Made by a program: the position numbers and the translations under genes. DNA of 42,146 bases from Dehalococcoidales bacterium (GTDB lineage Bacteria; Chloroflexota; Dehalococcoidia; Dehalococcoidales; RBG-16-60-22), in assembly GCA_034430755.1 (NCBI GenBank), contig DAOUDY010000003.1:1-42146 (forward strand). The letters run 5' to 3'. Numbering within the stretch: position 1 is the stretch's first letter; each line of letters starts with the position of its first letter. Under the pieces are notes generated by a model. That model was not told where the DNA came from. It worked only from the letters and a program-made list of their open reading frames with translations, and made no database searches. This document shows positions 16,541 through 33,295 of this stretch, in pieces.

Positions 16541-16561
16541 CATAGCTTGGGGTTAATCCAA

Positions 16562-16589
16562 CGGGGTTGCCTCATATGAGGCAACCCCG
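16562..16589 (+). terminator. GC-rich hairpin downstream of P1 (possible terminator/attenuator, no U-tract)
   Basis: The near-perfect palindrome CGGGGTTGCCTCATATGAGGCAACCCCG starts 22 nt after the P1 stop. Confidence 0.4.
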
Positions 16590-16602
16590 AAGCAGGAAAG
16601 AG

Positions 16603-16631
16603 TTGACAGATATTATGACAAGTGGTAGACT
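16603..16631 (+). promoter_or_regulatory. Near-consensus promoter for the P2-P3-P4 genes
   Basis: TTGACA (16603-16608), a 17-nt spacer, then TAGACT (16626-16631), ~40 nt upstream of the P2 GTG start. Confidence 0.5.
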
Positions 16632-16673
16632 CTGAGCAAAGTAATACCAACTGTCATAAAGGGAGGCGTAAAA

Positions 16674-17201: not shown

Positions 17202-17228
17202 TTTGGCAACAACTTAAAACAGGCATGA

Positions 17229-20200: not shown

Positions 20201-21992
20201 CAATGACTACACCTTCACCCTCAAAAAAGTCGCCCGGTATCTGGTCAAGTATGATATCACCTTCGCAAATAGCTCCTCCACCAGGACAGCCAGAATAGCC
20301 CGGGCTACCCTGGCCGGTTCCCCCATACCGCAAAGTTTTGCCTACTGCCATGTTCGAAACAACGTTACTACACCCGCCACATTACATGCGCTCTTTATTG
20401 TTGATAACCCATCACCGAATCAGGACCTCATCATTCAATCCCAGCGAGGCGACTCGCTGGTAGATTCAACGGTAGCCAGGACAGTCAGCGCTTCCAGCAT
20501 CGAGATTATGGAGCTGCCGTCAAGCGCCGAAGTAATCACCACTTATTATACTGATACCGGGGAAGAGATATCCGGTGGTGTAGTGCTGGACTGGGCCGCC
20601 GTGGAAGGAGTGCGTGATGCCAGCTCCTTCACCATTTCTGATAATGAGACCATAGAGGTGGAGCAGGATGATGATTACCTGTTTATGGCCAACGGGTTAA
20701 TCACCGATACTGTCCAGACTTCCGGCACCCGGTTCACCTTCGGGGCCGACTGGTACGTCGATGACAGCATCCAGTATGTGGGCGGTCACGGGAATTACAT
20801 GCGGCATGTCCAGGGCACTGTTGGAGTTTTCAACACCAGTATAAACGCACATAGTATTTTGAATGACCTGGATGCCAACCAGGAAGTGGAAATGCGTACT
20901 ATCAATGAAGGTGATACCGGTACCCCCAACTACGCCCAGCCCGACCAGTGCGGCTTCAGCGCGCTCAGGATAGGCAGCCTGTCAGCGACCAATGCTTACG
21001 CCCGGGCGGCCATCAAGCCCGGGGACACTGTTCATACCGGCACCGAAGAAAGCACCGCCGACGCCACCTTCACCACCAAGTCCTACCAGTGGACGACCAA
21101 CCCTGACACGGGCCAACCCTGGACCTGGGATGAAATAGACGCTTTGCAAGTCGGTGTGGAACTGAAGACAGACAGCACCGAGGACTCTTCCATCTGTACG
21201 CAGGTCTACCTTGAGGTTGATTACACCGCGTACAGTTCGCCGGGAACACTCACCTCGATAAATCTTCTCTCCGGGGAGACGGTGGCGAGTATAGACACGT
21301 TCAATTACGACGCCTCGGCGGTTCCCTCCGGCACGGGCCTGAAAGTGCAGTTCTCCACCGATAACAGCACCTGGTACAACTCGGCGGGCACGCCCGGCGG
21401 CTGGGATACCATGCCCCAGGGGACGGGTAATATCAGCCTTTCCGGGCTGGGCTGGTCGGGGCCCAATCTCTACTACAATACGGAATTCACCTCTGACGGC
21501 TCGGATACGCCGTTGCTCGACCTGATACGCGTCTATTTCTCCACCTACTACTCGACGGGCGATCTGACCTCAGCAACCTATGACACCGGCGATGACCAGG
21601 ACTGGGACTGGGAATATATCTATTTCACCATTGACGAGCCGGGGACCACTGATATCAGGTTCCAGATAAGGAGCGCCTCGACTGAAGCCGGGCTCAGCTC
21701 GGCGACCTGGTACGGCCCCACCGGCACGGGCGACTATTACACGGCCAGCGGCACAGAAATCAACTCCGTCCATGATGGCGACCGCTGGATTCAGTACCGG
21801 GCCGATTTCTCCGGCCCCGGCGATGCCACGCCAACCCTGAGCGATATCGAGTTGACCTACACCCTGGCCTCGGTGACTTACACCGTGGAAATAATCGGCG
21901 GTAGCTACGGGCTGGTCTCGTCCGACACGTCGGACTGGGCGTCGGGGTGGACGATTACCCCAGAGTTTTACTGCGAGGTAACCCAGCGGTAA
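17229..21992 (+). CDS. Giant secreted paralog P3 (1587 aa): subunit core carrying nested DUF2341-like, LamG and repeat-domain insertions
   Basis: The N-terminus is ...LALILSSGTFA|YTYVTSIGTIGIT. The DUF2341-like stretch is WQYRKKITINSANVSDNLTDFPVLVSV...YLYYG. LamG motifs are FDGSNDKITV...EVWVKAD...LDGIIDELRISNVARSDAWI. The C-terminus GWTITPEFYCEVTQR is shared with P4. Confidence 0.85.
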   Translation: MTRHWDKKAKKKLYLFIALGLALILSSGTFAYTYVTSIGTIGITPPTADVATCNTAASQPDWASILVPPETTGTEILNPNAAGDKTDIQSQIGSGAHWQLVDDWPTDDGDSTIVYTGNTSWEEDLYNLPSHTATSGNVTYVKVDVVCRADASPTQTNAYVHIKTNGTEANGPEVTTGTSYSTFSRQWDTNPVTGDAWTWDEMDSLQIGVGLRQPTGGGLSGCTQVYAEIGYGELVTTGDVPTGDLFTVHPNPGYNGDLQIGIYLTNTGPLIKAYQYLNMQVYMEGSVSSNQTPNHRLLTLQNGQTTLSLENLAGVSDSFFQTSRLDFEGGNLTNLDTSTSPDNVILDTFADNVTDNFTDESKIAYKNNVVVSNNQVKLVAGGAAATETFRPNAAGDDTDIASQYPDSGAHWDKVNDVTPDDYTTYIYTSSASTLNWYSSEWQYRKKITINSANVSDNLTDFPVLVSVTDTDLKDHAKSDASDIVFTASDGTTKLKREIESYDNSDGTLVAWVKTDLSSTTDTEVYLYYGYAGASETSDTDTWDTNFIMIQHMTDETTSSIEDSTTNNNDGTKQGAGEPAVTASGKIGDAQDFDGSNDKITVNDSTSLSFTNDEMTIEVWVKADTLPTNETSILRKDNQWQMAFVDSDTIRNLIATNGITGWTAANDEDYTFSTDTWYYWTFVYNGPNVRHMIDAQQVGSSHTVTGNITDNANVAEIGRCSYTNEFLDGIIDELRISNVARSDAWIETSYNNQSAPGDFFNVGSEESAGYERDLYNIPDHSTGSGVIDSVNAYFSIARDSVIGDAGIWRDTNNTHTIGALNVWTDVPFNSENKTSGSFNHTSDTQTDLTADGWYLIMYEIRSTSTSNTRHSIWARVTLEGSAVEGSEGFGYVRDNANDEGYTAGACIVNASANDTVVVQWRPYGVSSSDVLSNSKASLFILRLPDDTDVAYLKYADDSDTGAYGGTSWAGNEVTWADQVYETDNSVIQKSAANDYTFTLKKVARYLVKYDITFANSSSTRTARIARATLAGSPIPQSFAYCHVRNNVTTPATLHALFIVDNPSPNQDLIIQSQRGDSLVDSTVARTVSASSIEIMELPSSAEVITTYYTDTGEEISGGVVLDWAAVEGVRDASSFTISDNETIEVEQDDDYLFMANGLITDTVQTSGTRFTFGADWYVDDSIQYVGGHGNYMRHVQGTVGVFNTSINAHSILNDLDANQEVEMRTINEGDTGTPNYAQPDQCGFSALRIGSLSATNAYARAAIKPGDTVHTGTEESTADATFTTKSYQWTTNPDTGQPWTWDEIDALQVGVELKTDSTEDSSICTQVYLEVDYTAYSSPGTLTSINLLSGETVASIDTFNYDASAVPSGTGLKVQFSTDNSTWYNSAGTPGGWDTMPQGTGNISLSGLGWSGPNLYYNTEFTSDGSDTPLLDLIRVYFSTYYSTGDLTSATYDTGDDQDWDWEYIYFTIDEPGTTDIRFQIRSASTEAGLSSATWYGPTGTGDYYTASGTEINSVHDGDRWIQYRADFSGPGDATPTLSDIELTYTLASVTYTVEIIGGSYGLVSSDTSDWASGWTITPEFYCEVTQR

Positions 21993-22022
21993 GCCTCAAA
22001 TGCAGGCGCAGGTGATAGAGCG

Positions 22023-23042
22023 GTGAATAAAAACGTTATGCTCATTGTAGTATTGGCGGCACTGCTGGCCGTCAGCGGCGGTATATATGCCTACACGTAC
22101 ACCACCGGCCTGGGCGTCATCAGCATCACCGAGCCAACCGGTGACATCGCCACTGTAAATGCCTCAGGTAACCAGCCAGAATGGCTTGAAGTGCTGTCCA
22201 TCGCCCAGGATACAGAAACGCTGAGGCCAAATGCCGCCGGCACATACACACAATGTGACGCGGTTGGCGATACTGCCAACTACCTTTGTGTAGATGAGGC
22301 TGTCAGTGACGGTGACACCACATATGTCAGAACATGGGGCGGTGCTACCGAGCTGGATACCTATAATATCGAGGATCATACCACCGGGAGTGGAAACGTC
22401 ACCGATGTATATGCTTATACACATACGAGAGTTGATTCAGGCACCCACGACGCAGAAGTGGCCATCAGAACGAATAGCACGGACTATTTTGGGGGCTACA
22501 CTTCAGGGGTGCCAACAACCTATACATACTTATCAGCTAACTGGAACAACAATCCATTCACAAATAACCCTTGGACGTGGGCTGAGGTTGATGCGCTGGA
22601 AATCGGTGTCAGACACTATGACCTTAATGGCGGCTACTTATGGACCACACAGGTCTATGCCGATATTGATTATGACTACCTGCCCGTCACCGGAAATGCA
22701 CCCACGGGAGACCTTTTTGAAGTATATGAAAACCCTGACTACAGCGGCGACCTATCAGTAAGGGTCTACCTGACCAACACCGGCTCGCTGCAAAAAGCCT
22801 ATGAGAGCCTTGAACTGGAGCTGTATCTGGAGGACTCCGAGGAGGCGGGGCAATCACCGAATTACCAGGAGCTTACTTTAGAGAACGGGGTGGCCAGCTT
22901 CACCCTGAAAGACCCGGCCAGCGATAACCATACCCTGTCCGTAATCGGGGGCGACTACGCCCTGGTCTCGGACAATATGCCGGAATGGGAGGCGGGGTGG
23001 ACGATTACCCCAGAGTTCTACTGCGAGGCGACACAGCGGTAA
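22023..23042 (+). CDS. Secreted subunit paralog P4 (core plus one inserted module)
   Basis: GTG start. The N-terminus is MNKNVMLIVVLAALLAVSGGIYA|YTYTTGLGVISIT. It is collinear with P3 residues 1-310 and 1546-1587. The C-terminus is GWTITPEFYCEATQR. Confidence 0.8.
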   Translation: MNKNVMLIVVLAALLAVSGGIYAYTYTTGLGVISITEPTGDIATVNASGNQPEWLEVLSIAQDTETLRPNAAGTYTQCDAVGDTANYLCVDEAVSDGDTTYVRTWGGATELDTYNIEDHTTGSGNVTDVYAYTHTRVDSGTHDAEVAIRTNSTDYFGGYTSGVPTTYTYLSANWNNNPFTNNPWTWAEVDALEIGVRHYDLNGGYLWTTQVYADIDYDYLPVTGNAPTGDLFEVYENPDYSGDLSVRVYLTNTGSLQKAYESLELELYLEDSEEAGQSPNYQELTLENGVASFTLKDPASDNHTLSVIGGDYALVSDNMPEWEAGWTITPEFYCEATQR

Positions 23043-23051
23043 CATATCGGC

Positions 23052-23131
23052 GATTTTTACGAAAGCTTAACGGAACCTTTACGAAATCTTTATGTTTTTT
23101 ACGCCAATCTTTATGCCCCTGTGTTACAGTT
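23052..23131 (+). promoter_or_regulatory. Conserved cis-regulatory module, copy 2 (upstream of the signal peptidase gene)
   Basis: By my hand count it has ~61/75 identical positions to 14861-14935 without gaps. TTTACGAAA occurs at 23056 and 23078. Confidence 0.55.
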
Positions 23132-23163
23132 ATATTAGAATGATATAGGGCTAAAGCAACAAG

Positions 23164-24123
23164 ATGAAGGAATTTCTGAATATAATCCTGACCAGATCAT
23201 TCCGCTTCAAGCGCGCGCTCACGCTCATCGCGGTAGCGGCGATAATCCTCGCCGGCTTTATGACGGTACGGGGCACCATGCCGTTTATGCCCGTTTTCGG
23301 TACCAGCATGGAGCCGGAACTCCACGCCGGCAACCTCATCCTGATTACAGACAAGAGTCCGGATGGTGTTGAAGTCGGCGACATTATTGTCTATAACGTC
23401 CCGGCGGCAATCCAGGATTTTTATAACTACCCGGCGATAGTCGCGCACCGGGTAATTGAGGTACGCGATACTCAGTATGGCACTGCCTGGCGTACCAAGG
23501 GCGATAACGCCGGCGAAGACCCGTTCACGGTCCGCGCCAATGACCTGCGCGGCACGGTCAGCACCCAGATTCCCTTCCTGGGCTTCCCCTTCCTCTTCCT
23601 GCAGAGCAAGCAGGGCCTGATGTTCATTATCGTTGCCCTGTCGCTTTTCGCCATCTATCTCTACGCCAATGACATCAGCCGCGGCGGGCAGAAGATACAC
23701 CGTGGCATATTCGCGCCGGTTATCGAAGAGACATTACATGATACCGAAACACTGGCCCAGCGGATGGACGGCACCGAGAAAGTGATGGCCAAGACGCAGG
23801 AAGCGCTGAGCAGCTTCGCCACCGCCATGTCGGAATATGCCGAGCACCTGAGAAGCCATACCAGCGCCATTCAGGGGCTTGCCGAAGCGTCTCACGAACT
23901 CAAACGTGGTGCTGCCGAGCAGAACAAAGCCCTCGAGCACATCGTGGAGGCCCTGCAGCAGCGAAGGCCGCTCACCGAGGTGACCCCGCCTTCAGAGAAG
24001 CCGACGGCACCAACACCAACACCGGCACCGGCACCGGCACGGGAAAAAGGTAAATATCCTCCGGGCTGCGTGAGAAACAGACAGCTGGCTGGCGTGGGGC
24101 AAGACATTTACGGCGCTGCCTGA
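23164..24123 (+). CDS. ER/archaeal-type signal peptidase I (SipW/Sec11-like, S26B) with ~150-aa C-terminal extension
   Basis: 319 aa. N-terminal TM, GTSMEP (Ser48), AHRV (His95), TKGDNAGEDP (Asp114), and a second TM at 150-168. These are followed by a coiled-coil-like segment and a Pro-rich tail (PTAPTPTPAPAPA). Confidence 0.85.
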   Translation: MKEFLNIILTRSFRFKRALTLIAVAAIILAGFMTVRGTMPFMPVFGTSMEPELHAGNLILITDKSPDGVEVGDIIVYNVPAAIQDFYNYPAIVAHRVIEVRDTQYGTAWRTKGDNAGEDPFTVRANDLRGTVSTQIPFLGFPFLFLQSKQGLMFIIVALSLFAIYLYANDISRGGQKIHRGIFAPVIEETLHDTETLAQRMDGTEKVMAKTQEALSSFATAMSEYAEHLRSHTSAIQGLAEASHELKRGAAEQNKALEHIVEALQQRRPLTEVTPPSEKPTAPTPTPAPAPAREKGKYPPGCVRNRQLAGVGQDIYGAA

Positions 24124-24149: not shown

Positions 24150-24362
24150 CTAAGTATAGACCGCAACCACCACTGCTTCTTTCGGGTTATACTCATCAAA
24201 GAAAATGACCGCCACCTTCCTTCCGGCGGTCATTTCATCTGTCGGGAGGTTGCGGGCCACGGCCACGCCCTCCAGGTAGACTTTGTAGCTGCCCGCCAGT
24301 TGTACGGTTGCCGTGTAGTTGCCGGAATTGAAACCCTTCAAGACACCTTTTTTCAAGCTCAA
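24150..24362 (-). CDS. Hypothetical small protein (last gene of the phage-like block)
   Basis: 70-aa ORF, beta-rich by composition. It follows the 668-aa gene after a 25-nt gap. Confidence 0.45.
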   Translation of the reverse strand: MSLKKGVLKGFNSGNYTATVQLAGSYKVYLEGVAVARNLPTDEMTAGRKVAVIFFDEYNPKEAVVVAVYT

Positions 24363-24387
24363 TTTGACTGCCCTTCTTCGCGCTTAA

Positions 24388-26394
24388 TTAAACTGCCCCC
24401 AGTTGCAGACGCTGGCGATATTCCCCACGGCGCGGGCTGTAAACGAGAACAAAGCCGAGCACCCGCCGCTTTGCCGCATCAAGCCCGGCACGATTGTCCG
24501 TGATATCTATGACGTCACAGAGCTGCTGACCGCAATTGACCGGCACCAGTATGGTGCCGCTGGCCGATGCCACCTCTGCCTGTCTCAAATAAGCGTCGCC
24601 ACGTTCCTGCGCTTTGGCCACGGTGTCTATGTTCCTGTCTTCCAGCTGCCTGATTTTATCGTATAATCGGTCTATCTCATCCCAGGCAAAACGGTCAACC
24701 ACAATCGCCTCACCGCTCCCCGCGTCATAGCCCTCCACCTGGACGCGGTTGAGCTCCCAGGCTCCCTGCCTGTATCTCCCCTCCAGAATCGGGTGCTCCT
24801 CTCCATAGCTGTACAATGAGCTGTCCGATGATTGGGGATTGACAATGTAAGCCGTCGCACCTTCGAGAAACAGCACATCAGGAACAAAAGAGAGCAGTTT
24901 TCGGATGATTGTTTCGCCAAGGTTGCCGGAACTGACGGTAAAGTCGGGATAAAAACCGGTGATGACCGATGACTGCGATTTGACTGCCAGCTTCAGCCCT
25001 GCCCGGGCCAGAACGAAGGCCAGTATATCCTTGACGCTCATTTCCTCCGCGTCCTTGTTCCAGCGGAACTGGTGCCTGGCCCTCCAGCCAGCGATGGCCT
25101 CCCAGCCGTCCCGGGCATGGAGTATGAGACTGGCCGCGCCACCGGCACTGGTATGTTCATATCCCTCCAGGCAAAAATGCTGCCCGGCACTTACCTCATC
25201 GCCGTTGTCTGTGCGGTAGCCGGGACTGAAGTCCAGCTGGCAGCCGATGTTGAGAAGGGATAGTTCCCCCTGCCCCGGCGAGGCGTACTGCCCGGCATCG
25301 TTCCTCAGCTCTACGGTAAGTCTGCCCGATGCCTCTCCTGCCTCCTGCCGTACCGCCAGCACATCATCGGTCAGGTCAAGGCTCTGAACGGTGGCTCCGG
25401 CGCGCCAGACGCCCGCCGGACAGGAAAGCCAGCAGTAGTCCCCGTGGTGCGCCGCGGCCAGGCCGTATTCCGACGACAAATCAAATGGCACCGGTTCCCG
25501 CCACAGATTATCAACGAACCCGGCATCCGGAACCGTATGCGACCAGAAAGGACGGTTGTACATCTGGCTGCCGGAAAATCGCTCCACGAAGAAACCCCGG
25601 TAGACATCAGGTTTATCCAGAAATGGCTGAAGGTACTCAAATTCGCCGCCCGATGGCGCTGAGGCCAGCTCTTTTAACGGCGACCAGCTTCCCGCTGCTA
25701 CATCACCACCATCACCATAAATGAGCGACCACAGTTTAAAATTGCCCGATGAATCCCGGCCGGTGACCAGCAGGTTCCAGTCGTCCTCATAGACGGCGGC
25801 GATGCCGGACAGGTCACCGGTGCTTTTATCCCAGGTGGTGCGTTGCTGCCACTGGCCGCCGATGTTCTTCTTCACATACATCGTCGCCTGGTCAGCGAAG
25901 AATATCGCCAGGTCACCGTTTGGCCTGTAGGCCGCCGCCAGGCCACCGATATTGATGGTCGGGTTATAGTCAATGACCTCGGGGCTTCCCCAGCTAACGC
26001 CGTTATCGGTGCTCTTTATACGCTGGATCTTGCGGTTGACGCCATCTATCCAGAAAATGGAAACCTCAGCCCCCACCGCGGCACAGGCAACGGCGGCGGC
26101 ATTCATCTGGTTGGTGTATATCCACTGGCTGAAGTCGCTTGACGGACCGGGGTCAGACACCCGCTGGCGGTAAAGCCTGCGCGAATCGCCGGGCAGGGTC
26201 GCCCTGACGCGGATGAGAGAGCCATCGCCGGGCATGGCCACCACATGGTAATAATCATCCTCGGAGCCGGTGTACAGCCTGTTCCAGTCAAGCCTCACCA
26301 CGCCGGCAATTTTGTTCCTGGCTTCTACCTTAACACAGGGAATGGCGGCGGCTTCTTTCTGGGCCGCCAGCAATGTCGATGTCAGGTCGCGCAT
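24388..26394 (-). CDS. Phage-like tail/baseplate-hub-like protein with N-terminal BNR/Asp-box (sialidase-like) region
   Basis: 668 aa. One clear Asp-box (STDNGVSW). By eye the C-terminal ~330 aa resembles gpD/Mu gp44/XkdQ-type hub proteins (LTVELRND...ILAFVLARAGLKL...). This is a pattern-level call only. Confidence 0.45.
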   Translation of the reverse strand: MRDLTSTLLAAQKEAAAIPCVKVEARNKIAGVVRLDWNRLYTGSEDDYYHVVAMPGDGSLIRVRATLPGDSRRLYRQRVSDPGPSSDFSQWIYTNQMNAAAVACAAVGAEVSIFWIDGVNRKIQRIKSTDNGVSWGSPEVIDYNPTINIGGLAAAYRPNGDLAIFFADQATMYVKKNIGGQWQQRTTWDKSTGDLSGIAAVYEDDWNLLVTGRDSSGNFKLWSLIYGDGGDVAAGSWSPLKELASAPSGGEFEYLQPFLDKPDVYRGFFVERFSGSQMYNRPFWSHTVPDAGFVDNLWREPVPFDLSSEYGLAAAHHGDYCWLSCPAGVWRAGATVQSLDLTDDVLAVRQEAGEASGRLTVELRNDAGQYASPGQGELSLLNIGCQLDFSPGYRTDNGDEVSAGQHFCLEGYEHTSAGGAASLILHARDGWEAIAGWRARHQFRWNKDAEEMSVKDILAFVLARAGLKLAVKSQSSVITGFYPDFTVSSGNLGETIIRKLLSFVPDVLFLEGATAYIVNPQSSDSSLYSYGEEHPILEGRYRQGAWELNRVQVEGYDAGSGEAIVVDRFAWDEIDRLYDKIRQLEDRNIDTVAKAQERGDAYLRQAEVASASGTILVPVNCGQQLCDVIDITDNRAGLDAAKRRVLGFVLVYSPRRGEYRQRLQLGAV

Positions 26395-26403
26395 TTTTTC
26401 CTT

Positions 26404-26724
26404 TCACACCAGCGCCGCCAGGATATCTGGCAGCGGCTTGTTTCCCTTTCGATAATGTTCCGCAAGATGAAGGGCCGCCCCGAGTATCTCTTCCGGGCTA
26501 ACACGAACTCTTTTACCCGGACTTAACGGGGACAGGGCATTTGCCGCATCGGCAGCCTGACTCCAGTCGACGGTCTGCTCGATATCCAGAAGGCCTTTGA
26601 GAGCCCGGCCAATATTTCTCTTATGATGCGGCAAATGCCAGGTATCTGGATTCCCCACATCGCCAACGATAGCAAATGCCTCGCGGGGCAGGCCTTCTTT
26701 GGTCCGCTTCGTTCCTTCTTTCAT
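26404..26724 (-). CDS. Hypothetical protein (phage-like block)
   Basis: 106-aa ORF, co-oriented, with a 9-nt gap to the next gene. Confidence 0.45.
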   Translation of the reverse strand: MKEGTKRTKEGLPREAFAIVGDVGNPDTWHLPHHKRNIGRALKGLLDIEQTVDWSQAADAANALSPLSPGKRVRVSPEEILGAALHLAEHYRKGNKPLPDILAALV

Positions 26725-26736
26725 GTCTGCCTCACA

Positions 26737-27375
26737 TCAGGGACCATAATCAGTTGACTTTGAGACCACCGGATAGTATGGCTTATACAGGCTGCTGTCC
26801 CTGACCCGGTTTCTCCTTCCCAGGCGCCTCAATTCCTGCCGGAAAAAGTTCAGCCTTTCCCGGCCCCAACCAAGAAACTCCCGGGGCGTGGTATCTCCAC
26901 CAACATTCACCCGATTGACAGCAAAAATAGCCCACTCGACGGCAGCATAACCGGCAGCGCCGGCAGCAACCAGGTCTTCATACCGGCCGGGGATGGTGGA
27001 ACCATCAGCGTCAAGAGTGTGCAGCTTACCGTAGTACACATAAGCATTGGAGCCGTCCGGTATCTCCTCACTCAATATGGTCAGGGTATCTCCCCACAGC
27101 GAGAACCTCTGGTAACGTCTGGGGAACTGGTCCACCGGGTACTCAACCGCCATCATCATTACCCTGTCGGAAAGGTTTGATATATCCAGCTCCCGCAAGC
27201 CTGAGGTCGTAGCTTTCGTCGCCTTCTGCTCGCTTGGCAGATACTCGGACAAATCTTTAACCGCACGGGCAATGTGCCTGTTCAGTTCATCATCAGTCCA
27301 GCGATAGTTACCGTCATCCTCGTCATGGAGGTCACGCCGGACCATGGCTCTCATATCAGTTAAATTCATAATCAC
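26737..27375 (-). CDS. Putative head-tail adaptor/connector-like protein
   Basis: 212 aa. The N-terminus LTDMRAMVRRDLHDEDDGNYRWTDDELNRHIARAVKDLSEYL resembles gp6-like head-tail connector N-termini. The position relative to the capsid gene fits that role. Confidence 0.4.
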   Translation of the reverse strand: MIMNLTDMRAMVRRDLHDEDDGNYRWTDDELNRHIARAVKDLSEYLPSEQKATKATTSGLRELDISNLSDRVMMMAVEYPVDQFPRRYQRFSLWGDTLTILSEEIPDGSNAYVYYGKLHTLDADGSTIPGRYEDLVAAGAAGYAAVEWAIFAVNRVNVGGDTTPREFLGWGRERLNFFRQELRRLGRRNRVRDSSLYKPYYPVVSKSTDYGP

Positions 27376-27450
27376 CTCACCCCCTTAGTCCCCCTCTCCT
27401 TAAAAGGAGAGGGGGGAAATGATTTTTTGAAGGGGGCTTCGCCCCTTCAT
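27376..27450. repeat. Intergenic double-hairpin repeat, copy B (10-bp C/G stem 27390-27415 plus GAAGGGG..CCCCTTC 27429-27448)
   Basis: It has the same architecture as 2758-2835, with similar C-rich flanks. Confidence 0.5.
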
Positions 27451-27463
27451 ACTTCCCTTTTAT

Positions 27464-27544
27464 TTAGACAGCAGCTTTTCTGCTTGCCCTTTTCTTAGAT
27501 AGCAGCTTTTCTGCTTGCCCTTTTCTTAGATAGCAGCTTTTCTG
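27464..27544. repeat. 31-bp tandem direct repeat, about 2.6 copies
   Basis: Units occupy 27464-27494, 27495-27525 and 27526-27544 (TTAGA[C/T]AGCAGCTTTTCTGCTTGCCCTTTTC). The partial unit contains the stop codon and last codons of ORF 27526-27756. Confidence 0.9.
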
Positions 27545-27756
27545 ACCTCCAGTCTTTCCAGCTTGGTGCAGGGCAGGCCTTCATCATGCCGGCATATCTC
27601 AATGTCACAGAATGAAATCTCCTCGTTACTCATGCCCTCATTGATGCTGACGGCTTTACCGCTCAATTCCCGGGCATATTCCATCAGTGATTGTGCATCA
27701 GCTTCGCGGTCAAAGCTCAAATCAACTCTTACCCGATACTTCATCGATACCTCCAC
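27526..27756 (-). CDS. Hypothetical small acidic protein (phage-like block)
   Basis: 76-aa ORF. Its start overlaps the LamG gene stop by 16 nt. Confidence 0.45.
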   Translation of the reverse strand: MEVSMKYRVRVDLSFDREADAQSLMEYARELSGKAVSINEGMSNEEISFCDIEICRHDEGLPCTKLERLEVRKAAI

Positions 27757-28382
27757 TTCGTCGCCAGATAGTTATGTTGGATTTCCAAAAGCGTCAGGGC
27801 ACGGCGGTAAATTCTGACCTCACCGATAAGGCCGTTTAGATAATATGCTGCCGCGGCCCGGCCTAGCTGGACATCGTTTGTGGTAACGTCTATGGTGCCT
27901 GTCACCGAGGTTGCTGGCGTCCGCTCCACGCCGTTGATATACAGGCGCAAATAGTGGCCGCAATAGGTGATAACCGCGTGATGCCACGTTTCCAGCAGCG
28001 CCGTGTAAAAGTACGTAAATCTGGCACTGCCGTCAATCTTGAACCTGCCGTATAAATTGGTGCCGTTCTCGTTTATCCGCAGTGAATAGCTGTCATTTTT
28101 ATCAAGTATGCCCGGCCACTCGTTTGCCGCCGCTGCCGCCGACAGATTCGCCCACGCCTCGAGCGTGATCGAGCTGGTGATATCAAATATCGACGAATTA
28201 CCGCAATTGATTATGTCATCGCTGCCGTCGAAGCTCCTGCCCACGGGCGTCCAGCGGGCTCCGGTCACCGTGCACCGGTGGCCATAGACATCCCGGGACA
28301 TAAACGGGCTGCCATCGATAACCTGAAGCGGCAGATAAAGAACCAAGCTGGGGTCAAAGATAAAGTTCACTTCACACCTCAC
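27741..28382 (-). CDS. LamG/concanavalin-A-like lectin domain protein
   Basis: 213 aa with FDGSDDIINCGNSSIFDITSSITLEAWANL ... YLNGLIGEVRIYRRALTLLEI, the typical LamG edge-strand motifs. Confidence 0.7.
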   Translation of the reverse strand: MRCEVNFIFDPSLVLYLPLQVIDGSPFMSRDVYGHRCTVTGARWTPVGRSFDGSDDIINCGNSSIFDITSSITLEAWANLSAAAAANEWPGILDKNDSYSLRINENGTNLYGRFKIDGSARFTYFYTALLETWHHAVITYCGHYLRLYINGVERTPATSVTGTIDVTTNDVQLGRAAAAYYLNGLIGEVRIYRRALTLLEIQHNYLATKWRYR

Positions 28383-28843
28383 GACGCAGCATACTTTACG
28401 CTTACATAGCTGGAGTTTTTCACCTTGGCCCGGCCTTCGTTTGCTTCATTGCACTGGATGAGCAGCTTGACCTCGAAAGGCAGGGAATTGAAATTGCTGA
28501 CCATCTTGAAGCGGCCGCTCCGCGTCTCCTCGACGTAGCTGGTGCCGATATCGGTCTTGGTGACCGCGCTGTGCAGGTCAACCCAGGTGCCGCCCTGGTT
28601 CCTCGCCTGCCATTTATAGGTGAGGTCGGCCGTGGCCGAGGACACGGCCCGGAAGGCCGCCGTCAGGCCGAACTCGACCTCCATCACCTCGCCCAGTGCC
28701 GGCGGCCTGACGGCGACACTCTCCACCTCGACATCGGTGTCTGGAGTCGTCGTATCCACCTCGGATGACCACTGGACACCGTCCGAGGTCAGGTCTCCCT
28801 TGGCAAAGGGATATTCCGCATGTTCAATTACGGCAAGTACCAT
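28379..28843 (-). CDS. Hypothetical protein downstream of the capsid gene (possible decoration or neck protein)
   Basis: 154-aa ORF with a 4-nt overlap to the LamG gene. An AGGAGG RBS lies upstream. Confidence 0.5.
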   Translation of the reverse strand: MVLAVIEHAEYPFAKGDLTSDGVQWSSEVDTTTPDTDVEVESVAVRPPALGEVMEVEFGLTAAFRAVSSATADLTYKWQARNQGGTWVDLHSAVTKTDIGTSYVEETRSGRFKMVSNFNSLPFEVKLLIQCNEANEGRAKVKNSSYVSVKYAAS

Positions 28844-28860
28844 CTTTTACCTCCTTTAAG

Positions 28861-28883
28861 GGGGGAGGGTAATCCCCTCCCCC
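28861..28883 (-). terminator. GC hairpin between the capsid gene and downstream genes (possible attenuator)
   Basis: GGGGGAGGG-taatc-CCCTCCCCC, a 9-bp stem, lies between the capsid stop (28893) and the next RBS. Confidence 0.35.
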
Positions 28884-28892
28884 ACTGCTTCA

Positions 28893-29813
28893 CTAATCTT
28901 TCACCCCGATCAACGCCGCTGCTTTGACCGAGCTGAAAAGCGCCAGCGAGACGTACCATTTGACCCTGGTCCGGGTGGCGTCCTTGCTCTCCATGGAGCC
29001 GATAGGCTCCACGGTCAGCCCACCGGGGGCAGTCAGGCCGCACAGGGCCCACTCACCGAACTGGACGGCGTAAATGGTGGAGCAGTCGCTGCCGGTGGTC
29101 CCGGTCTCCACGCTGTCGCTCAAGGTGTGCGTGTCCAGTATCCAGTCATTGACGCCAATGGGAATGCCGTCCCAGAGCTGGACAAAGTTGCCCCACTGGT
29201 CACGGTCGTTTTCGACCAGGCCACCGCCAGCCCTGACCAGCGCGTTTAGCTTGCGCCGTGACCGGCGGCTCACAATGAGCATGTCCGGCTTGCCGCCCCT
29301 GACGGCATCGATGAGCTCGTCGAGCATGGAGAGCGTCAGGGTCGCCCCGGTAGGCCCGGCGGCAATAACCTGGTCGCTGGCCGTGGTGGTATCTATGAGC
29401 GTTCTCAGGCCGTCAAACTGCTTTGAGTTTTCCGAGCTATCGCCGTAGATAAAGGTATCCTCAAACTTGTCCTTGACCGCCTTGGCCTTCAGCTCCACCA
29501 CCGCCGCCTCAAGGTCCTGAATATTGCTCCGGGTTGTCTTGAGAAAGTTGTCCACATCGGCATCTCCGCCCATAATCTTCAGATTGGCCGTCTTCTGCTC
29601 GAAGGTGGGCGTGGACTCGTCCCAGGTGTCGTCCACATTATAGAAGTCCACGCTGGGCAGCGTCTTCTCCTGGTTATAGGTCAGCCCGTTGCCGACAATC
29701 TCGATGAAGGGTATTTGCTGCAGGATGGGGGATTCCTTGATGATAGTCTCCACCACCCCCTGGAGCAGCATATCATTGGACAGTTTGCTTGCTTCCGCCA
29801 GTGTTAAAGCCAT
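28893..29813 (-). CDS. Putative HK97-fold major capsid protein
   Basis: 306 aa. Its size, its position after the scaffold-like gene, and its sequence character (LTLSMLDELIDAVRGGKPDMLIVSRRSRRKLNAL; C-terminal WYVSLALFSSVKAAALIGV) fit the phage capsid family. Confidence 0.65.
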   Translation of the reverse strand: MALTLAEASKLSNDMLLQGVVETIIKESPILQQIPFIEIVGNGLTYNQEKTLPSVDFYNVDDTWDESTPTFEQKTANLKIMGGDADVDNFLKTTRSNIQDLEAAVVELKAKAVKDKFEDTFIYGDSSENSKQFDGLRTLIDTTTASDQVIAAGPTGATLTLSMLDELIDAVRGGKPDMLIVSRRSRRKLNALVRAGGGLVENDRDQWGNFVQLWDGIPIGVNDWILDTHTLSDSVETGTTGSDCSTIYAVQFGEWALCGLTAPGGLTVEPIGSMESKDATRTRVKWYVSLALFSSVKAAALIGVKD

Positions 29814-30301
29814 TACCTTTTACCTCCTATTGCATATTCGATTTTCTCCCGCGGAGACAGAACGGACAGATCGAGCGGTGCCCGAGGTGGCGCCCCGGCC
29901 GGCACCCTTGTTTTTGAAGTTTCCGCCTCAATGCCCTGTTTCACCTTATCGACCAGGGCCTGGGCACTCTGCCGGGATTCATCCACGGCGGCCACCGAAT
30001 CGCCGGTTATGAGCTCGGGCGGTATTTCCGGATGCGCCGCCACCACCAGTTCCCGGTAGCTGGCCACCGCCTGAGACAGCAAATCATTTATCTGCACCAG
30101 TTTCTGCTCCGACTCGGCCATGGTTTGCTTCAGGCCAGCAATCTCGGTATCCCTGGCGGCAAGAGCTTCCTCAAGCTCACCCATGGTTGCTTCTCTGGCC
30201 TTGAGCTCACGATTGAGCACCTCTTTTTCCTGCTTCAGGCTTTCCAGTTCCCCTCGAAGCCCTTCAAGCTCATCTGTCTGTTCTTTTTCTTCGTCAGCCA
30301 C
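29813..30301 (-). CDS. Putative scaffolding protein
   Basis: 162 aa, strongly acidic and coiled-coil (ELEGLRGELESLKQEKEVLNRELKAREATMGELEEALAARDTEIAGLKQ). It lies between the portal and capsid genes. Confidence 0.55.
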   Translation of the reverse strand: MADEEKEQTDELEGLRGELESLKQEKEVLNRELKAREATMGELEEALAARDTEIAGLKQTMAESEQKLVQINDLLSQAVASYRELVVAAHPEIPPELITGDSVAAVDESRQSAQALVDKVKQGIEAETSKTRVPAGAPPRAPLDLSVLSPREKIEYAIGGKR

Positions 30302-30319
30302 CGTTATGCCTCCTGCCGA

Positions 30320-31705
30320 TTATTCCTCAACGCCTTCCGCCTGAGCCGTTACCACCCTCTCCCTCTTTTCGTGGCTCGCCGACCTGGCGTTAAGCTGTCG
30401 ATTCATTTTCAAAATGGTCTCCCGCTCTTCAAGCCATCGCCCGAACTCGCTATCCGGGTCTCTGACCCCCAGCTCATCCATGGCGCGCTTTCGGGAATGA
30501 ATGCCGTTCTGGACAAGTATCTGCTCGTTGTTAACCTGGCGGGTTATATCCTGAGGCAGAATCGGGCTCCATACCACCCGCAGATGATTGCCGCCAAGGT
30601 TCACGCCGCGATACTTTTCCAGCAGCTTGAGAATCATCTCATTCCTGCGTTTATACACCGCGCTGCGGATGATCCGCTTCCGCCGCACCTTCTGCAGCAA
30701 CGGGTGAAGTTCAATCTCAAGCGCTACCCCGGACAGGTCTCTCTCCGTCCCGCCAAAGGCAGAGCGGGGCGATTCGGAAATGTCATGCAGGCTACGGTAC
30801 AGCAGGTCAATATAATTGATGTGCAGATTGACGCCGCCGCCCTGAAGCAGGTCGAGCAGGTAGGCCTTGGCATCTTCCGGTATGTTCCACACCGCCCCGG
30901 GCCTGATGGCAATATCATCGGACTCCTCAATGTTCTCCAGGACAGCGATGGGGTTGCCGGACAATTCCAGTATCCGTGATAGCTGGCTCATCGCCCGGTT
31001 CAACTCGCGCTGCGATTCCATAACCTGGGGCAGGTCGGACACGCCCCAGAATTTCTTGGGCTCACGCAGATTCGGATAGATGATGAAGGGAATGAATCCG
31101 TACGGATTTGGTTTCTGCTCCACCAGCATGTTATCCAGGTACAGCTCAAAATCCCGTTCCGTCCATATTTCAATCACCGCTGCCGTCTTTTTCCTGGGCG
31201 TTATCTGATAAAGAAACTCGGCTTCTTCCGCCGATAATATATATCTGGAAGCGACCCGCCATATCCTCGAGGTATCGTCTCCCAGCCACCAGGCGTAAAT
31301 ACCCTGGACATCGGGAGCGGTTATCCTGACCTTCTTCTCCGCCGCATCCCAGATGACCTTGTAACAGGCATCACCGAGTATGGCGCAGTCGATCTCCGTC
31401 TCCAGGTCGAGCTGCTCCAGGTTATTCTCCTCATAAACCCCGTACAGTGCCTCCTCTGCCTGCCGGGCTTTACCCCTCGCTTCTTCCGAGTCCTCCGCCG
31501 CATCGACGGCGAAGTTAATGCCCGACATCAGGTATGAGGTAATCTTATCGATGAACACCTTGGCGTAGTTGAAAGTGAGGCGTCTTTCTCCCCTCCTCTC
31601 CCGGCCTGCCCACTGCTGACCGTGATAGAAATCGAGAAGCTCTTTGTAACCCTTGATACGGTCAAAGTCCAACCTTGACAGTTGCATCGGAAGCGTTTCC
31701 TTCAT
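30320..31705 (-). CDS. Putative phage portal protein (SPP1 gp6-like)
   Basis: 461 aa. The N-terminal FYHGQQW...LTFNYAKVFIDKITSYLMSG pattern is typical of gp6-like portals. It sits upstream of the scaffold and capsid genes. Confidence 0.65.
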   Translation of the reverse strand: MKETLPMQLSRLDFDRIKGYKELLDFYHGQQWAGRERRGERRLTFNYAKVFIDKITSYLMSGINFAVDAAEDSEEARGKARQAEEALYGVYEENNLEQLDLETEIDCAILGDACYKVIWDAAEKKVRITAPDVQGIYAWWLGDDTSRIWRVASRYILSAEEAEFLYQITPRKKTAAVIEIWTERDFELYLDNMLVEQKPNPYGFIPFIIYPNLREPKKFWGVSDLPQVMESQRELNRAMSQLSRILELSGNPIAVLENIEESDDIAIRPGAVWNIPEDAKAYLLDLLQGGGVNLHINYIDLLYRSLHDISESPRSAFGGTERDLSGVALEIELHPLLQKVRRKRIIRSAVYKRRNEMILKLLEKYRGVNLGGNHLRVVWSPILPQDITRQVNNEQILVQNGIHSRKRAMDELGVRDPDSEFGRWLEERETILKMNRQLNARSASHEKRERVVTAQAEGVEE

Positions 31706-32024
31706 TTTCCGACCGGTCTCCTTTTATCAGCGTTTTACCAAGTGCTCTCTGCACCGTCCTGGCACTTACCCCGAACATCAAAGCCAGCTCTTTTATCTCT
31801 TTACCTTCTCCGGTGAACAGCCTGATTATTTCCCGATTCCGCATCGTTTTCAGCCAGCGCTGCTTTCCCCCGGGCTGCTCATAGACACACTGTAGAAAGG
31901 GGCAGTTGAGACAGGAATCGGCAAGGTCGCAGCCCTCATCCCTGTAATGGCAGAATTCTGGCGGTAAGTCGTGCTCATCTTTTGAAAGTCCTTCACTGGG
32001 ATAACCGGATTCCATTTCGCCCAT
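31662..32024 (-). CDS. Cys-rich HTH protein (regulator or small-terminase-like), first gene of the phage-like block
   Basis: 120 aa. Cysteine cluster CHYRDEGCDLADSCLNCPFLQC followed by a sigma-r4/LuxR-like HTH (IKELALMFGVSARTVQRAL). It overlaps the portal ORF start by 44 nt. Confidence 0.5.
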   Translation of the reverse strand: MGEMESGYPSEGLSKDEHDLPPEFCHYRDEGCDLADSCLNCPFLQCVYEQPGGKQRWLKTMRNREIIRLFTGEGKEIKELALMFGVSARTVQRALGKTLIKGDRSENEGNASDATVKVGL

Positions 32025-32072
32025 GTCTGTTCACTCTAGCCATCGGCCCAATACTAAAATCAAGCAACACAA

Positions 32073-32101
32073 ATTTAGCACATATGTTCTATCGCAGTCA
32101 A
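32073..32101 (-). promoter_or_regulatory. Host-type promoter driving the phage-like block
   Basis: On the minus strand, TTGACT (32096-32101) is followed by a 17-nt spacer and CTAAAT (32073-32078). Confidence 0.4.
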
Positions 32102-32122
32102 TGGCCTTTTGTCGCTTTTTCC

Positions 32123-32151: not shown

Positions 32152-32221
32152 CATAGTAGAGATATTGCGCACGGAAGACATTTTTGAACGCGATTTTAAC
32201 CTGCTGAAATAGGCATTGAAA

Positions 32222-33295
32222 ATGGCGTCGAAACGAGATTACTACGAAACCCTGGGTGTTCCGAGGGATGCCACCGCGGAGGATATCAGGAAGGCGTTCC
32301 GCCGGCTCGCCTTTAAATATCACCCTGACCGCAACCGCGATGACGGAGCGGAAGCGAAGTTCAAGGAAATAAACGAGGCCTTCGAGATGCTCTCCGACCC
32401 CGACAAGCGCGCCCGCTACGACCATTTTGGCCACATTGACACCGACGGCCTTTTCAGCCGCGGCTTTGAGGGCTTTGACTTCGGCGGCTTCGGCGACATC
32501 TTTGAAACTTTCTTCAGCGGCATGAGGCACGCCAGCCGCCACGCACCGCAGCGGGGCAATGACCTGCAATACCAGGCAACCATATCTCTTGAGGAAGCCG
32601 CATTCGGCTGTGAGAAGGAAATCGAAATACAACGCACCGAGCTGTGCACCACCTGCCACGGCACCGGTGCCAAGCCGGGCAGTCAGCCCGTTCGCTGCCC
32701 GAACTGCAACGGCACCGGACAGGTGCGAAAAGTCCAGCGCAGCCTCTTCGGCAGCTTCGTTAACACCACCATCTGCAACCGCTGTCAGGGCGAGGGTCAG
32801 GTTATATCAGAGCCGTGTCCGCAGTGCCGGGGAAGCGGTCGGGAGAAAGGGAAACGCCGCATCTCGGTCAAGATTCCAGCCGGCATACAGGATGGCACTC
32901 AGATACGCCTCAGCGGCGAGGGAGAAGTGGGCCTGAGAGGCGGCTCTTCCGGTGACCTCTATGTGACCATCGGGGTGCTGGAGCACGAGTTTTTCATAAG
33001 AGATGGCGACGACATCATCTACGAATTACCGATTAACTTCGCGCAGGCGGCGCTCGGGGATGAAATGGAAATACCCACTCTTTACGGCAAAGAGAGAATC
33101 AGCATCCCTCACGGAAGCCAGACGGATAGAGAGTTCCGCCTGAAAAGCAAGGGCATCGCTCACCTGGGGCGTAATGGACGCGGCGACCAGATTGTAAGTT
33201 TGCGTGTGGTTACGCCGGAATCGCTGACCAAGGAGCAGCGCAAGCTCTTTGAGGAACTGGCTGATAGCCTTGAACCAGCGAAAAGCGACGATTAA
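32222..33295 (+). CDS. dnaJ: Molecular chaperone DnaJ
   Basis: J domain (DYYETLGV...YHPDRN), G/F region, and four CxxCxGxG zinc-finger repeats. I prefer the ATG at 32222 over the TTG at 32216. Confidence 0.95.
   Translation: MASKRDYYETLGVPRDATAEDIRKAFRRLAFKYHPDRNRDDGAEAKFKEINEAFEMLSDPDKRARYDHFGHIDTDGLFSRGFEGFDFGGFGDIFETFFSGMRHASRHAPQRGNDLQYQATISLEEAAFGCEKEIEIQRTELCTTCHGTGAKPGSQPVRCPNCNGTGQVRKVQRSLFGSFVNTTICNRCQGEGQVISEPCPQCRGSGREKGKRRISVKIPAGIQDGTQIRLSGEGEVGLRGGSSGDLYVTIGVLEHEFFIRDGDDIIYELPINFAQAALGDEMEIPTLYGKERISIPHGSQTDREFRLKSKGIAHLGRNGRGDQIVSLRVVTPESLTKEQRKLFEELADSLEPAKSDD

Follow-up and report, generated by a model that had tools for sequence, protein, structure and literature searches.

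The head-neck-hub operon of a probable domesticated, GTA-like particle system in uncultured Dehalococcoidales

The locus poses the question of what a compact set of phage-like head, neck and hub genes is doing between dnaJ and a signal peptidase gene. In the window (the whole stretch of DNA analysed, 42,146 nucleotides) these genes form an 8-kb block of eleven co-oriented ORFs, all on the minus strand (32024→24150), as an earlier note on this DNA had described; its account of the two flanking genes, of the 26 bp between convergent stops and of a base composition like that of the flanks (GC 0.51-0.60 in the block, 0.49-0.61 elsewhere) was likewise borne out. That note left three readings: a decayed prophage remnant, a domesticated particle, or a partner of the adjacent fibre locus. 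Our analysis favors the second, in that the block is probably the head-neck-hub operon of a two-operon, domesticated, vertically inherited, GTA-like, DNA-packaging particle system in uncultured Dehalococcoidales (Chloroflexota), and looks like a previously undescribed element of that kind. Its features are as follows.

32216-33295, plus strand: dnaJ, flank of the block
32072..32113, minus strand: promoter/operator, from sequence reading and a promoter scan
31662..32024, minus strand: g1, small regulator with Cys-rich HTH (Pfam Sigma70_r4_2, 9.5e-5; phrog_836, 9e-6)
30320..31705, minus strand: g2, portal of SPP1 type, 461 aa (PF05133, 4.5e-26; phrog_64, 1.4e-41)
29813..30301, minus strand: g3, coiled-coil scaffolding-like protein, 162 aa (portal-capsid position; coiled-coil matches; weak phrog_233, 0.0027)
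28893..29813, minus strand: g4, HK97-fold major capsid, 306 aa (phrog_212, 7.5e-76; Pfam GP7, SU10_MCP, Phage_capsid)
28379..28843, minus strand: g5, beta-rich accessory protein, 154 aa, variable slot
27741..28382, minus strand: g6, accessory LamG (concanavalin-like lectin) protein, 213 aa (PF13385, 4.2e-24)
27526..27756, minus strand: g7, accessory protein, 76 aa, kept where present
27376..27544, minus strand: g7-g8 spacer, hairpin and tandem repeats
26737..27375, minus strand: g8, head-to-tail adaptor, 210-212 aa (PF24175 SU10_adaptor, 5.8e-9)
26404..26724, minus strand: g9, conserved protein, 106 aa (aligned WxLPHH...HLAxHY motifs)
24388..26394, minus strand: g10, beta-propeller and putative hub, 668 aa (Asp-box; AlphaFold model with Foldseek)
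24150..24362, minus strand: g11, beta-rich protein, 70 aa, last gene of the operon, kept in 46 loci
23164-24123, plus strand: archaeal-type/SipW signal peptidase gene (TIGR02228, 85 bits)

Family profiles match the HTH, portal, capsid, LamG and adaptor proteins, in agreement with the earlier calls. The g1 protein combines an N-terminal five-Cys cluster (C-x6-C-x6-C-x2-C-x4-C) with a C-terminal sigma-70 region-4-like HTH, and the motif DLPPEYCxYRDEGC...CLxCP...C...GVSxRTVQRALK is kept throughout the clade; phrog_836 is annotated 'late transcriptional activator', and the start codon may lie a few codons further downstream. The portal (dN/dS 0.13) has its nearest phage relatives in the portals of BCD7, BRock-like Streptomyces phages and BS162P1. 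Capsid homologues exceed 5300; the best 120 share 82-94% identity, and almost every one has a length of precisely 306 aa (dN/dS 0.06-0.10). The scaffold call for g3, kept in 48 loci (dN/dS 0.27), takes its basis from the coiled coil, the position and the weak phrog_233 match.

In the neck, the g8 adaptor profile scores 37 bits (cut-off 27), with a weak PDB match to 7wmp, 'Adaptor protein gp12' (dN/dS 0.16). The g9 product, which found no match in family, PDB or phage searches (dN/dS 0.18), is by position alone a candidate stopper or neck ring. The description of g10 as a BNR protein with a hub gained moderate support: one Asp-box, STDYGASW, can be read in the N-terminal beta-propeller, and Foldseek on a low-confidence AlphaFold model (pLDDT 55) returned beta-propeller lectins/sialidases and Mu gp44 / gpD / XkdQ-type hubs, in moderate support of a gp27 / Mu gp44 / gpD-like hub domain. 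Pfam, PHROG, NCBIfam, PDB-sequence and phage tblastn searches with g10 gave no match; its 1410 homologues are of conserved length (dN/dS 0.12-0.16). The g11 protein, exactly 70-71 aa in 46 loci (dN/dS 0.13) and matchless in a PDB search, is a speculative candidate for a hub cap or spike.

The accessory slot is the variable part, complete systems holding from zero to four such genes. The g5 gene, which 33 of about 60 loci carry (dN/dS 0.11) and which lacks matches among families or in the PDB, possibly encodes a capsid decoration protein. By comparison, g6 is hypervariable, with 25-54% identity in loci whose neighbouring genes share 75-94%, and in many loci it is absent or unrelated genes stand in its place; g7 has no family match (dN/dS 0.16). 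The g7-g8 spacer holds a GC-rich hairpin with a 12-bp stem (27389-27416) and three 31-nt tandem repeats (27452-27544) that copy the last g7 codons and stop, and could be an attenuator inside the operon or an RNA-stability element.

Overall, the intact operon is found in about 69 Dehalococcoidales species representatives, with thousands of metagenome proteins besides, and core gene order is kept throughout these species-level genomes (L001-L069). The earlier claim that the ORFs are intact, against simple decay, holds well beyond the window, lengths being conserved in 46-65 of the species, and NG86 dN/dS values of 0.06-0.27 across all eleven genes, those of 70-106 aa included, reveal purifying selection. 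Module proteins are as conserved as der, gpsA, dnaJ and RR230, with which portal pairwise identities correlate (r=0.92, 0.87, 0.84 and 0.86, respectively). Upstream neighbours vary by lineage and are housekeeping genes (dnaJ, enolase, radical SAM, ADH); the insertion context is conserved on the g11 side. At least two genomes hold broken versions, one without g9-g11 (L028) and one in which some 8 kb separate the scaffold gene from the capsid gene (L058). All host genomes are MAGs of uncultured bacteria; contaminating contigs common to the bins, as an artefactual source of the conservation, are disfavored by the differing host flanks.

The TTGACT promoter proposed earlier proved real, has an extended -10, and recurs in all the related loci that were examined. 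Along the minus strand, GACAAAA (32113-32107, read from the sequence) lies upstream of the -35 TTGACT (32101-32096, promoter scan), and a near-palindromic operator, TAGAACATATGTGCTA (32091-32076), overlaps the extended -10 TGcTAAATT, which ends at 32072; 34 of 34 related loci show this same architecture. The operator is a Cheo box with one mismatch, which falls on an invariant position of the canonical GAAC-N4-GTTC box. The composite GACAAAA-N14-15-TAGAACATATGTGCTA is common to the head operon and to a terS/terL operon, and 110 of 122 operator sites in metagenomes lie upstream of one or the other (head operon in 72, terS/terL in 38); 11 are unclassifiable, the contig end being too near, and one precedes something else. 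No tube, tape-measure, fibre or lysis gene was found in this metagenomic regulon.

The conserved terS-like/terL operon of the relatives bears out the suggestion that packaging functions lie elsewhere, and argues against a non-packaging nanocompartment; 'without packaging', as the block had been titled, is true of the window but not of the system. TerL matches Pfam Terminase_6C (29 bits, cut-off 22.6) and PHROG terL families, aligns with the Bacillus phage vB_BboS-125 terminase (33% identity, 94% of length, 7e-41) and BCD7 TerL (1e-34), and has conserved Walker A/B and nuclease Asp motifs (dN/dS 0.087); the best 120 of its 4028 homologues are at least 80% identical. Its structural model (pLDDT 43) is too poor for fold confirmation, and comparing its profile with that of FA70-type TerL gave no significant match. 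The TerS-like protein matches phrog_1889 (1e-8). The terL and portal genes share their phage ancestry: both find their relatives in the same phages, where they lie side by side. Among relatives the terS/terL operon lies directly upstream of the block, across host genes, or unlinked to it (L077 and L078). The lack of terL beside the portal, flagged earlier, is true of the window, but the phage relatives and two contigs in which both operons are contiguous (L209, L222) have this adjacency. Searches of the 42-kb window, and of 10 kb around the operon in the window's closest relatives, turned up neither terS nor terL; the window's own genome presumably carries terL outside the window, and we infer that in this lineage the head operon must have been relocated beside dnaJ, with the terS/terL operon elsewhere. 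The complete system spans about 10.3 kb and comprises 10-13 genes (terS-like, terL, g1, portal, scaffold, capsid, accessory, adaptor, g9, beta-propeller+hub, g11), contiguous and in classical phage order in some genomes, with host genes between terL and g1 in others.

Terminase, protease, integrase, tube, tape-measure and lysis families are absent among the window's scanned ORFs, and the window holds no tRNA, as had been stated. Not every absence on the earlier list is an anomaly, since scaffold-using capsids of this type are not known to need a prohead protease. A PHROG scan of 96 large flanking ORFs matched 46 families, the 25 commonest of which include no integrase, replication or tail family; true prophages, with terL adjoining portal, served as positive controls (L070-72).

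How such a system might work, from trigger and particle assembly to DNA content and transfer, can be proposed from its genes. A DNA-binding regulator would sit on the operator, the candidates being the g1 Cys-HTH protein or, because the operator is a one-mismatch Cheo box, a LexA-like repressor. Once the operator is freed, procapsids would assemble on the portal with help from the scaffold, TerS/TerL would load them with DNA, and adaptor, g9 and hub (with g11) would close the portal to give a short-necked particle without a tube, a short hub in place of a tail being the best reading. The hub beta-propeller and accessory LamG protein would then attach to cell-surface glycans. The genes are immobile and often unlinked, and the particle should therefore be unable to propagate itself; most likely it packages and transfers host DNA, and is hence GTA-like.

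A selected particle with some role other than gene transfer is the least improbable alternative, though still unlikely. Possible roles include capsid-based killing or acting as a decoy, a defence that ties up or competes for the components of infecting phages, a stress-made capsule for DNA export/eDNA or DNA storage, or a head that is completed by tails from a co-resident phage. The tube-less, lysis-less operator regulon, the lectin/sialidase-like hub propeller, and a LamG/unknown-protein slot that evolves fast, in the manner of conflict or recognition systems, are compatible with these; however, a TerS/TerL pair under common control and strong conservation implies that DNA is packaged, the built-in adaptor and hub remove the need for a helper's tail, and the family searches revealed neither toxin nor effector domains. 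A tie to the adjacent SipW/fibre locus (15851-24123), whose fibres would be part of the particle or its receptor, is very improbable: the two adjoin and converge in 16 of the 42 cases where enough sequence is available, and both encode LamG domains, but the fibre proteins have SipW-type signal peptides and their own signal peptidase, and are therefore secreted cell-surface proteins, while the fibre locus lacks the operator, and many genomes with the capsid operon do without it.

Equally doubtful is a functional mobile temperate phage or cf-PICI-like satellite with its remainder outside the window. Phage-like order, with terS/terL contiguous in some contigs, the viral classification of about 24 such contigs in IMG/VR, and one contig with the same operator beside an HNH nuclease and an integrase-like gene (L173) point that way. 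Against this, across about 69 species the 10 kb around the operon contain no integrase gene and none for replication, lysogeny or lysis, the g11-side context is conserved, divergence follows housekeeping genes, the two operons can have host genes between them, the whole system is so small, and it has its own TerL, which cf-PICIs lack. The missing tail and lysis genes and the two broken copies would suit a functionless, decaying prophage remnant, the least probable reading of all given the intact ORFs, the low dN/dS even in the smallest genes, and the conserved promoter/operator. The conservation of an intact operon under purifying selection argues instead for the domesticated, GTA-like particle.

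As a functional class, GTAs (RcGTA of Rhodobacter capsulatus, BaGTA, VSH-1, Dd1, VTA) resemble the Dehalococcoidales system in several ways: structural genes of phage origin are fixed in the chromosome, passed on vertically and held under purifying selection; an integrase or replication module is missing; many genomes have the genes split among separate loci; and conserved regulatory sites of host type serve for expression. The Dehalococcoidales system differs in being much smaller, apparently tube-less and hosted by Chloroflexota; no sequence-family kinship with RcGTA is seen, and the prohead protease, tube, tape-measure and megatron genes of RcGTA are absent. The phages Bacillus BCD7 and vB_BboS-125, Streptomyces BRock-like and Bacteroides BS162P1 share homologous TerL (29-33% identity, nearly full length), portal (24%) and the ancestral order terL-portal-scaffold-capsid, and one BCD7 protein matches the g10 hub domain by fold (low-confidence g10 model); yet each of these is a full virus of 58-115 kb that also encodes sheath/tube, tape measure and baseplate as well as replication and lysis functions, and none of those genes has a counterpart here. 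Like cf-PICIs, the element has a compact capsid, portal and connector set without a tail, but those are mobile (integrase, replication, helper-induced) and borrow helper tails, whereas the Dehalococcoidales element does not move, encodes a TerL and a hub itself, and diverges in step with its host. Encapsulins, too, are HK97-fold shell proteins kept by selection in cellular genomes, but they enclose protein cargo and have no portal, adaptor, scaffold or terminase, all of which the Dehalococcoidales system possesses.

All eleven open reading frames that the earlier note had proposed as a compact phage-derived module are present and run co-oriented along the minus strand, 32024 to 24150 (the head operon, g1 to g11), and the flanking genes were confirmed as dnaJ and an archaeal-type (SipW-like) signal peptidase gene (TIGR02228, 85 bits). 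The features on which the following discussion depends are these.

Window 32113-32072, minus strand: promoter/operator, from sequence reading and a promoter scan.
Head operon, minus strand: g1, the first gene, encoding a five-cysteine cluster followed by a sigma-70 region-4-like HTH.
Head operon, minus strand: SPP1-type portal (PF05133, 4.5e-26; phrog_64, 1.4e-41).
Head operon, minus strand: HK97-type major capsid protein (phrog_212, 7.5e-76; also Pfam GP7, SU10_MCP and Phage_capsid).
Head operon, minus strand: LamG protein (PF13385, 4.2e-24).
Head operon, minus strand: SU10-type head-tail adaptor (PF24175, 5.8e-9, exceeding the cut-off).

The putative scaffold gene between portal and capsid is assigned from coiled-coil content and position. 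The g10, g9 and adaptor products yielded zero tblastn matches among 50,697 phage genomes, and PDB profile searches returned no significant match for g5, g9, g10, g11 or the large-terminase (terL) product of relatives, and a single weak match, to an adaptor, for the adaptor profile. The 668-aa g10 product matched no sequence family, PDB entry or phage protein in profile, PDB and phage searches. Its AlphaFold model (pLDDT 55) is usable domain by domain only and, at this low confidence, resembles beta-propeller lectins/sialidases and, separately, baseplate hubs of the Mu gp44 / gpD / XkdQ type; an Asp-box is also present in the sequence. The earlier label of "BNR+hub" is therefore plausible from the Asp-box and the Foldseek matches, and is not firm, given the low-confidence model and the absence of a sequence-family match.

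Family scans of the window bore out the reported lack of terminase, protease, integrase, tube, tape-measure and lysis families, and the base composition of the block is, as had been judged by eye, not distinct from that of the rest of the window. No tRNA occurs in the window, whose opening stretch (1-232, minus strand) belongs to the 5' end of a 23S rRNA gene (Rfam LSU_rRNA_bacteria, 174 bits), confirming a chromosomal context. The same strand carries, at 9032-11884, the gene for an FGAM synthase of 950 aa in which PurS domains are fused to the PurL N terminus. Within the operon, in the region 27376-27544, a 31-nt sequence comprising the last six codons of g7, its stop and 12 nt beyond is repeated three times in tandem, adjoined by a GC hairpin with a 12-bp stem (27389-27416) immediately ahead of the adaptor gene; this region is possibly an intra-operon attenuator or a product of slippage.

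Homologues of the capsid protein number more than 5300; the best 120 of them show 82-94% identity, are nearly all exactly 306 aa long and, where named, belong to Dehalococcoidia/Dehalococcoidales; the top phage match reaches 41% identity only. When each prokaryotic species was represented by one genome, a scan recovered 69 loci of Dehalococcoidales type, the genomes compared all being MAGs, together with four unrelated prophages. In essentially all 69 the order g1, portal, scaffold, capsid, variable slot, adaptor, g9, g10, g11 is kept, and the ORFs retain their lengths in 46-65 species. Pairwise Nei-Gojobori estimates of dN/dS range from 0.06 to 0.27 across module genes (capsid 0.06-0.10, portal 0.13, g10 0.12-0.16), being low also for the genes encoding 70-106 aa (0.13-0.18), and denote purifying selection. 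Pairwise identity of the portal correlates with that of der (r=0.92), gpsA (0.87), dnaJ (0.84) and the neighbouring response regulator RR230 (0.86), and the module proteins are no less conserved than the products of these genes. Such a pattern is consistent with vertical inheritance under selection. Neither decay, which the earlier note had entertained as a prophage remnant, nor recent mobility fits the intact lengths, the low dN/dS and the tracking of housekeeping genes. Integrase, replication and lysogeny modules were looked for in the window and up to 10 kb away in the approximately 69 related genomes, with no match, and true prophages used as controls behaved as expected. Individual departures occur. 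In one closed chromosome (L028, CP070842.1, 7768-11640) the operon ends after the adaptor gene, a GAF gene follows, and g9-g11 are not near the operon. In L058 (1603-10001) the scaffold gene stands approximately 8 kb away from the capsid gene, the match to which begins at residue 23. Both are broken versions of the module.

The packaging functions that the earlier note had supposed might lie elsewhere were found in relatives as a terS/terL operon (Pfam, PHROG, tblastn). A PHROG scan of 96 large flanking ORFs from all loci flagged a terL family in two; one of these genes (L015, 1141-2538) exceeds the Pfam Terminase_6C threshold, and its orthologues (68-79% identity) lie on the same strand, 5-6 kb upstream of g1, in eight species loci. 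The alignment to annotated phage large terminases covers 94-95% of the length (vB_BboS-125, 7e-41; BCD7, 1e-34), and in the protein the Walker A-like ARQGGKNE is invariant, with a Walker B (hhhhDE) and three Asp motifs of the nuclease also retained. Its dN/dS among 17 full-length copies is 0.087, and the best 120 of 4028 homologues show at least 80% identity. The preceding gene encodes a 116-aa protein matching small-terminase families (phrog_1889, 1e-8). The best phage relatives of the portal are BCD7, BRock-like and BS162P1, in which terL abuts the portal gene, and TerL and portal thus share an origin. The same scan found terL beside the portal in the control prophages (L070-72) and would hence have found it in Dehalococcoidales loci had it been there. 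The AlphaFold model of TerL (pLDDT 43) gave only weak Foldseek matches to generic RNase-H-like folds, and profile comparison with FA70-type TerL (hhalign) was not significant; since neither is decisive, the assignment rests on the Pfam and PHROG profiles, tblastn to phage terminases and the catalytic motifs. Abundant genes of approximately 600 aa upstream of the operon, considered as terminase candidates, were rejected as encoding TIG/Ig-domain proteins.

The relative placement of the two operons varies. They are contiguous, in phage order, on a 10.9-kb contig with all thirteen genes (L209, the system itself taking up 10.3 kb) and similarly on L222, and in several further contigs terL lies directly upstream of g1 without an intervening TIG gene. 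One to three divergent TIG/Ig-domain genes split the operons in 25 of 56 loci (L015, L064, L078, L108 and others), more than any other upstream context; because the palindromic operator lies in the intergenic region shared with these genes, it could affect them too. The operons are unlinked in L077 and L078, where no module gene lies within 10 kb of terS/terL, and in the subclade of the window terL was absent within 10 kb of dnaJ-flanked head operons, implying an unlinked terS/terL in that lineage. In L077 (15200-21400), beside the TIG gene and at the usual place of the head operon, an element encoding a serine recombinase, HTH/RHH regulators and an MCM/AAA protein is probably the insertion that split the two operons. 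The g11 side is more stable, with the SipW locus adjoining in 16 loci and a response regulator/histidine kinase pair adjoining directly in 12.

In the window this neighbouring SipW-type locus (15851-24123, plus strand) includes the signal peptidase I gene (23164-24123), whose product has a long coiled-coil/Pro-rich tail. Proteins of 229, 175, 1587 and 339 aa have a common N-terminal signal (..GGMFAYT(F/Y)T..), the latter three also a common C-terminal end, (Y/W)CE(V/I/A)TQR; the 1587-aa protein carries LamG and BclA_C domains, and a 101-nt repeat occurs at the 3' ends of two of the genes. The locus looks like a secreted fibre or appendage system of Dehalococcoidales.

One promoter/operator is common to the two operons. 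In all 34 loci with enough sequence, g1 is preceded by (C/T)GACAAAA, 6-7 nt, TTGAC(T/G), 5 nt and TAGAACATATGTGCTA, the 3' end of which forms an extended -10. The identical 16-mer precedes terS/terL, with GACAAAA 14 nt upstream, no -35 box and a longer palindrome, ATAATAGAACATATGTGCTATTAT. The motif was absent elsewhere in approximately 1 Mb of related DNA. Among the 122 sites listed in a metagenome scan with the composite motif, 72 lie ahead of the head operon, 38 ahead of terS/terL, 11 at contig ends (too close to classify) and 1 elsewhere, from which the regulon would comprise the head and terS/terL operons. A distant relative (L067, capsid identity 55%) keeps the operator with two mismatches. 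The sole other context among those sites, in L173 (Ga0172362_10111226, 560-1700), places GACAAAA-N15-TAGAACATATGTGCTA before a small Zn-ribbon ORF and an HNH endonuclease gene divergent from an integrase-like gene; possible readings are a mobile relative and a phage with the same regulator. A high-GC IMG/VR contig (L280, GC 0.65, 1-3514) encodes, in a different order, a capsid protein (62%), an adaptor (52%) and a 367-aa protein to which a g11-like domain is fused, with the exact 16-mer operator and no GACAAAA box, and may represent a related system in another Chloroflexota lineage.

The box GAAC-N4-GTTC is the LexA site in Gram-positives and Dehalococcoides. The operator, GAAC-ATAT-GTGC, differs from this consensus by one mismatch at an invariant position, and the mismatched base exactly creates the TG of the extended -10, which makes SOS (LexA) control of both operons an attractive hypothesis. 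Neither SOS genes nor canonical LexA boxes were found in the 0.97 Mb scanned. Alternative candidate regulators are the g1 Cys-HTH protein and the neighbouring two-component regulators: the window encodes a histidine kinase, an OmpR-type and a LuxR-type response regulator (13378-15764, plus strand), and in most species such genes stay close to the g11 end, whether or not a SipW locus intervenes, making them candidate regulators of the particle system.

The slot between the capsid and adaptor genes holds 0-4 genes and is empty in about ten species. The content seen in the window (g5, LamG gene, g7) is common to many loci; elsewhere the slot encodes unrelated proteins of 130-670 aa, and ten of these alternative proteins, when scanned, had no Pfam domain. 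The LamG protein shows 25-54% identity where neighbours reach 75-94%. A diversity-generating retroelement acting on it was rejected, as no template/variable repeat was found. Slot genes may supply exchangeable surface decoration or recognition proteins.

Taken together, these observations indicate that the operons very probably specify a domesticated, selected, DNA-packaging particle system. In the scheme we propose, a regulator bound to the operator would keep both operons silent; upon induction, procapsids would assemble from portal, scaffold and capsid protein, DNA would then be packaged by TerS/TerL, and the portal would be closed by adaptor, g9, hub and g11. As no tube, tape measure, sheath or fibre gene accompanies the operator among the sites listed, the particle neck is predicted to be very short. 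Dehalococcoides-type cells are reported to be without peptidoglycan; if so, the absence of an endolysin is less surprising. The genes being immobile and frequently unlinked, the particle is presumably not a self-propagating virus, and packaging and transfer of host DNA would be its most economical function; were this so, its particles would be expected to carry essentially random host DNA into recipient cells. A strict gene transfer agent (GTA) function could well apply, and we stop just short of calling it probable. Only tentatively, and as a rather unlikely composite, do we envisage an independently domesticated, order-wide, minimal and tube-less DNA-packaging organelle of Dehalococcoidales, its portal closed by an adaptor, a small ring protein and a lectin-bearing hub/spike, its two operons under one dedicated and possibly stress/SOS-responsive operator, constituting a new architectural class of GTA or else a capsid-based device for DNA export or storage with no known counterpart.

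Members of the Dehalococcoidales, most of them uncultured, abound in anoxic sediments and aquifers and carry small, streamlined genomes; a particle system would give them a concrete mechanism of DNA exchange. That a 10-kb system is kept order-wide, conserved like ribosome-associated GTPases, implies a strong benefit. Its small gene set (as few as ten genes, no tube) makes it a tractable candidate for reconstitution, and it tests the minimum needed for packaging and delivering DNA. About 24 such contigs are entered as viruses in IMG/VR through detection pipelines, so that counts of "Dehalococcoidia phages" are inflated.

Several known systems invite comparison. A functional temperate prophage carries integrase/att, immunity, replication, full tail and lysis functions, none of which occurs in the window or around its relatives. 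The cf-PICIs have an integrase, a replication/regulatory module and TerS without TerL, and depend on a helper, whereas the system described here lacks integrase and primase, has its own TerL in relatives and is not mobile. Encapsulins are HK97-fold shells without portal or packaging machinery, while portal, adaptor and TerS/TerL are encoded here. The RcGTA-type cluster has a prohead protease, tail tube, tape measure and distal tail/hub/megatron proteins; no such families emerged from Pfam/PHROG scans of the eleven proteins and flanking ORFs, and it is by family profiles that the two are set apart. By lifestyle, as read from its genes, the system matches the GTA class: phage-like structural genes belong to the cellular chromosome, modules for integration, replication or lysogeny do not accompany them, and they are vertically inherited under purifying selection across a host clade. 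The particle genes are dispersed in some genomes and contiguous in others. An operator common to both operons and an often adjoining two-component system may reflect cellular control. To our knowledge, few independent domestications of phage capsids into GTAs have been recognized, and none in Chloroflexota; a limited literature search found no report of a GTA or capsid module in Dehalococcoidia. We rate the system, on its sequence features, as an apparently tube-less, independent and unusually minimal domestication in the Chloroflexota.
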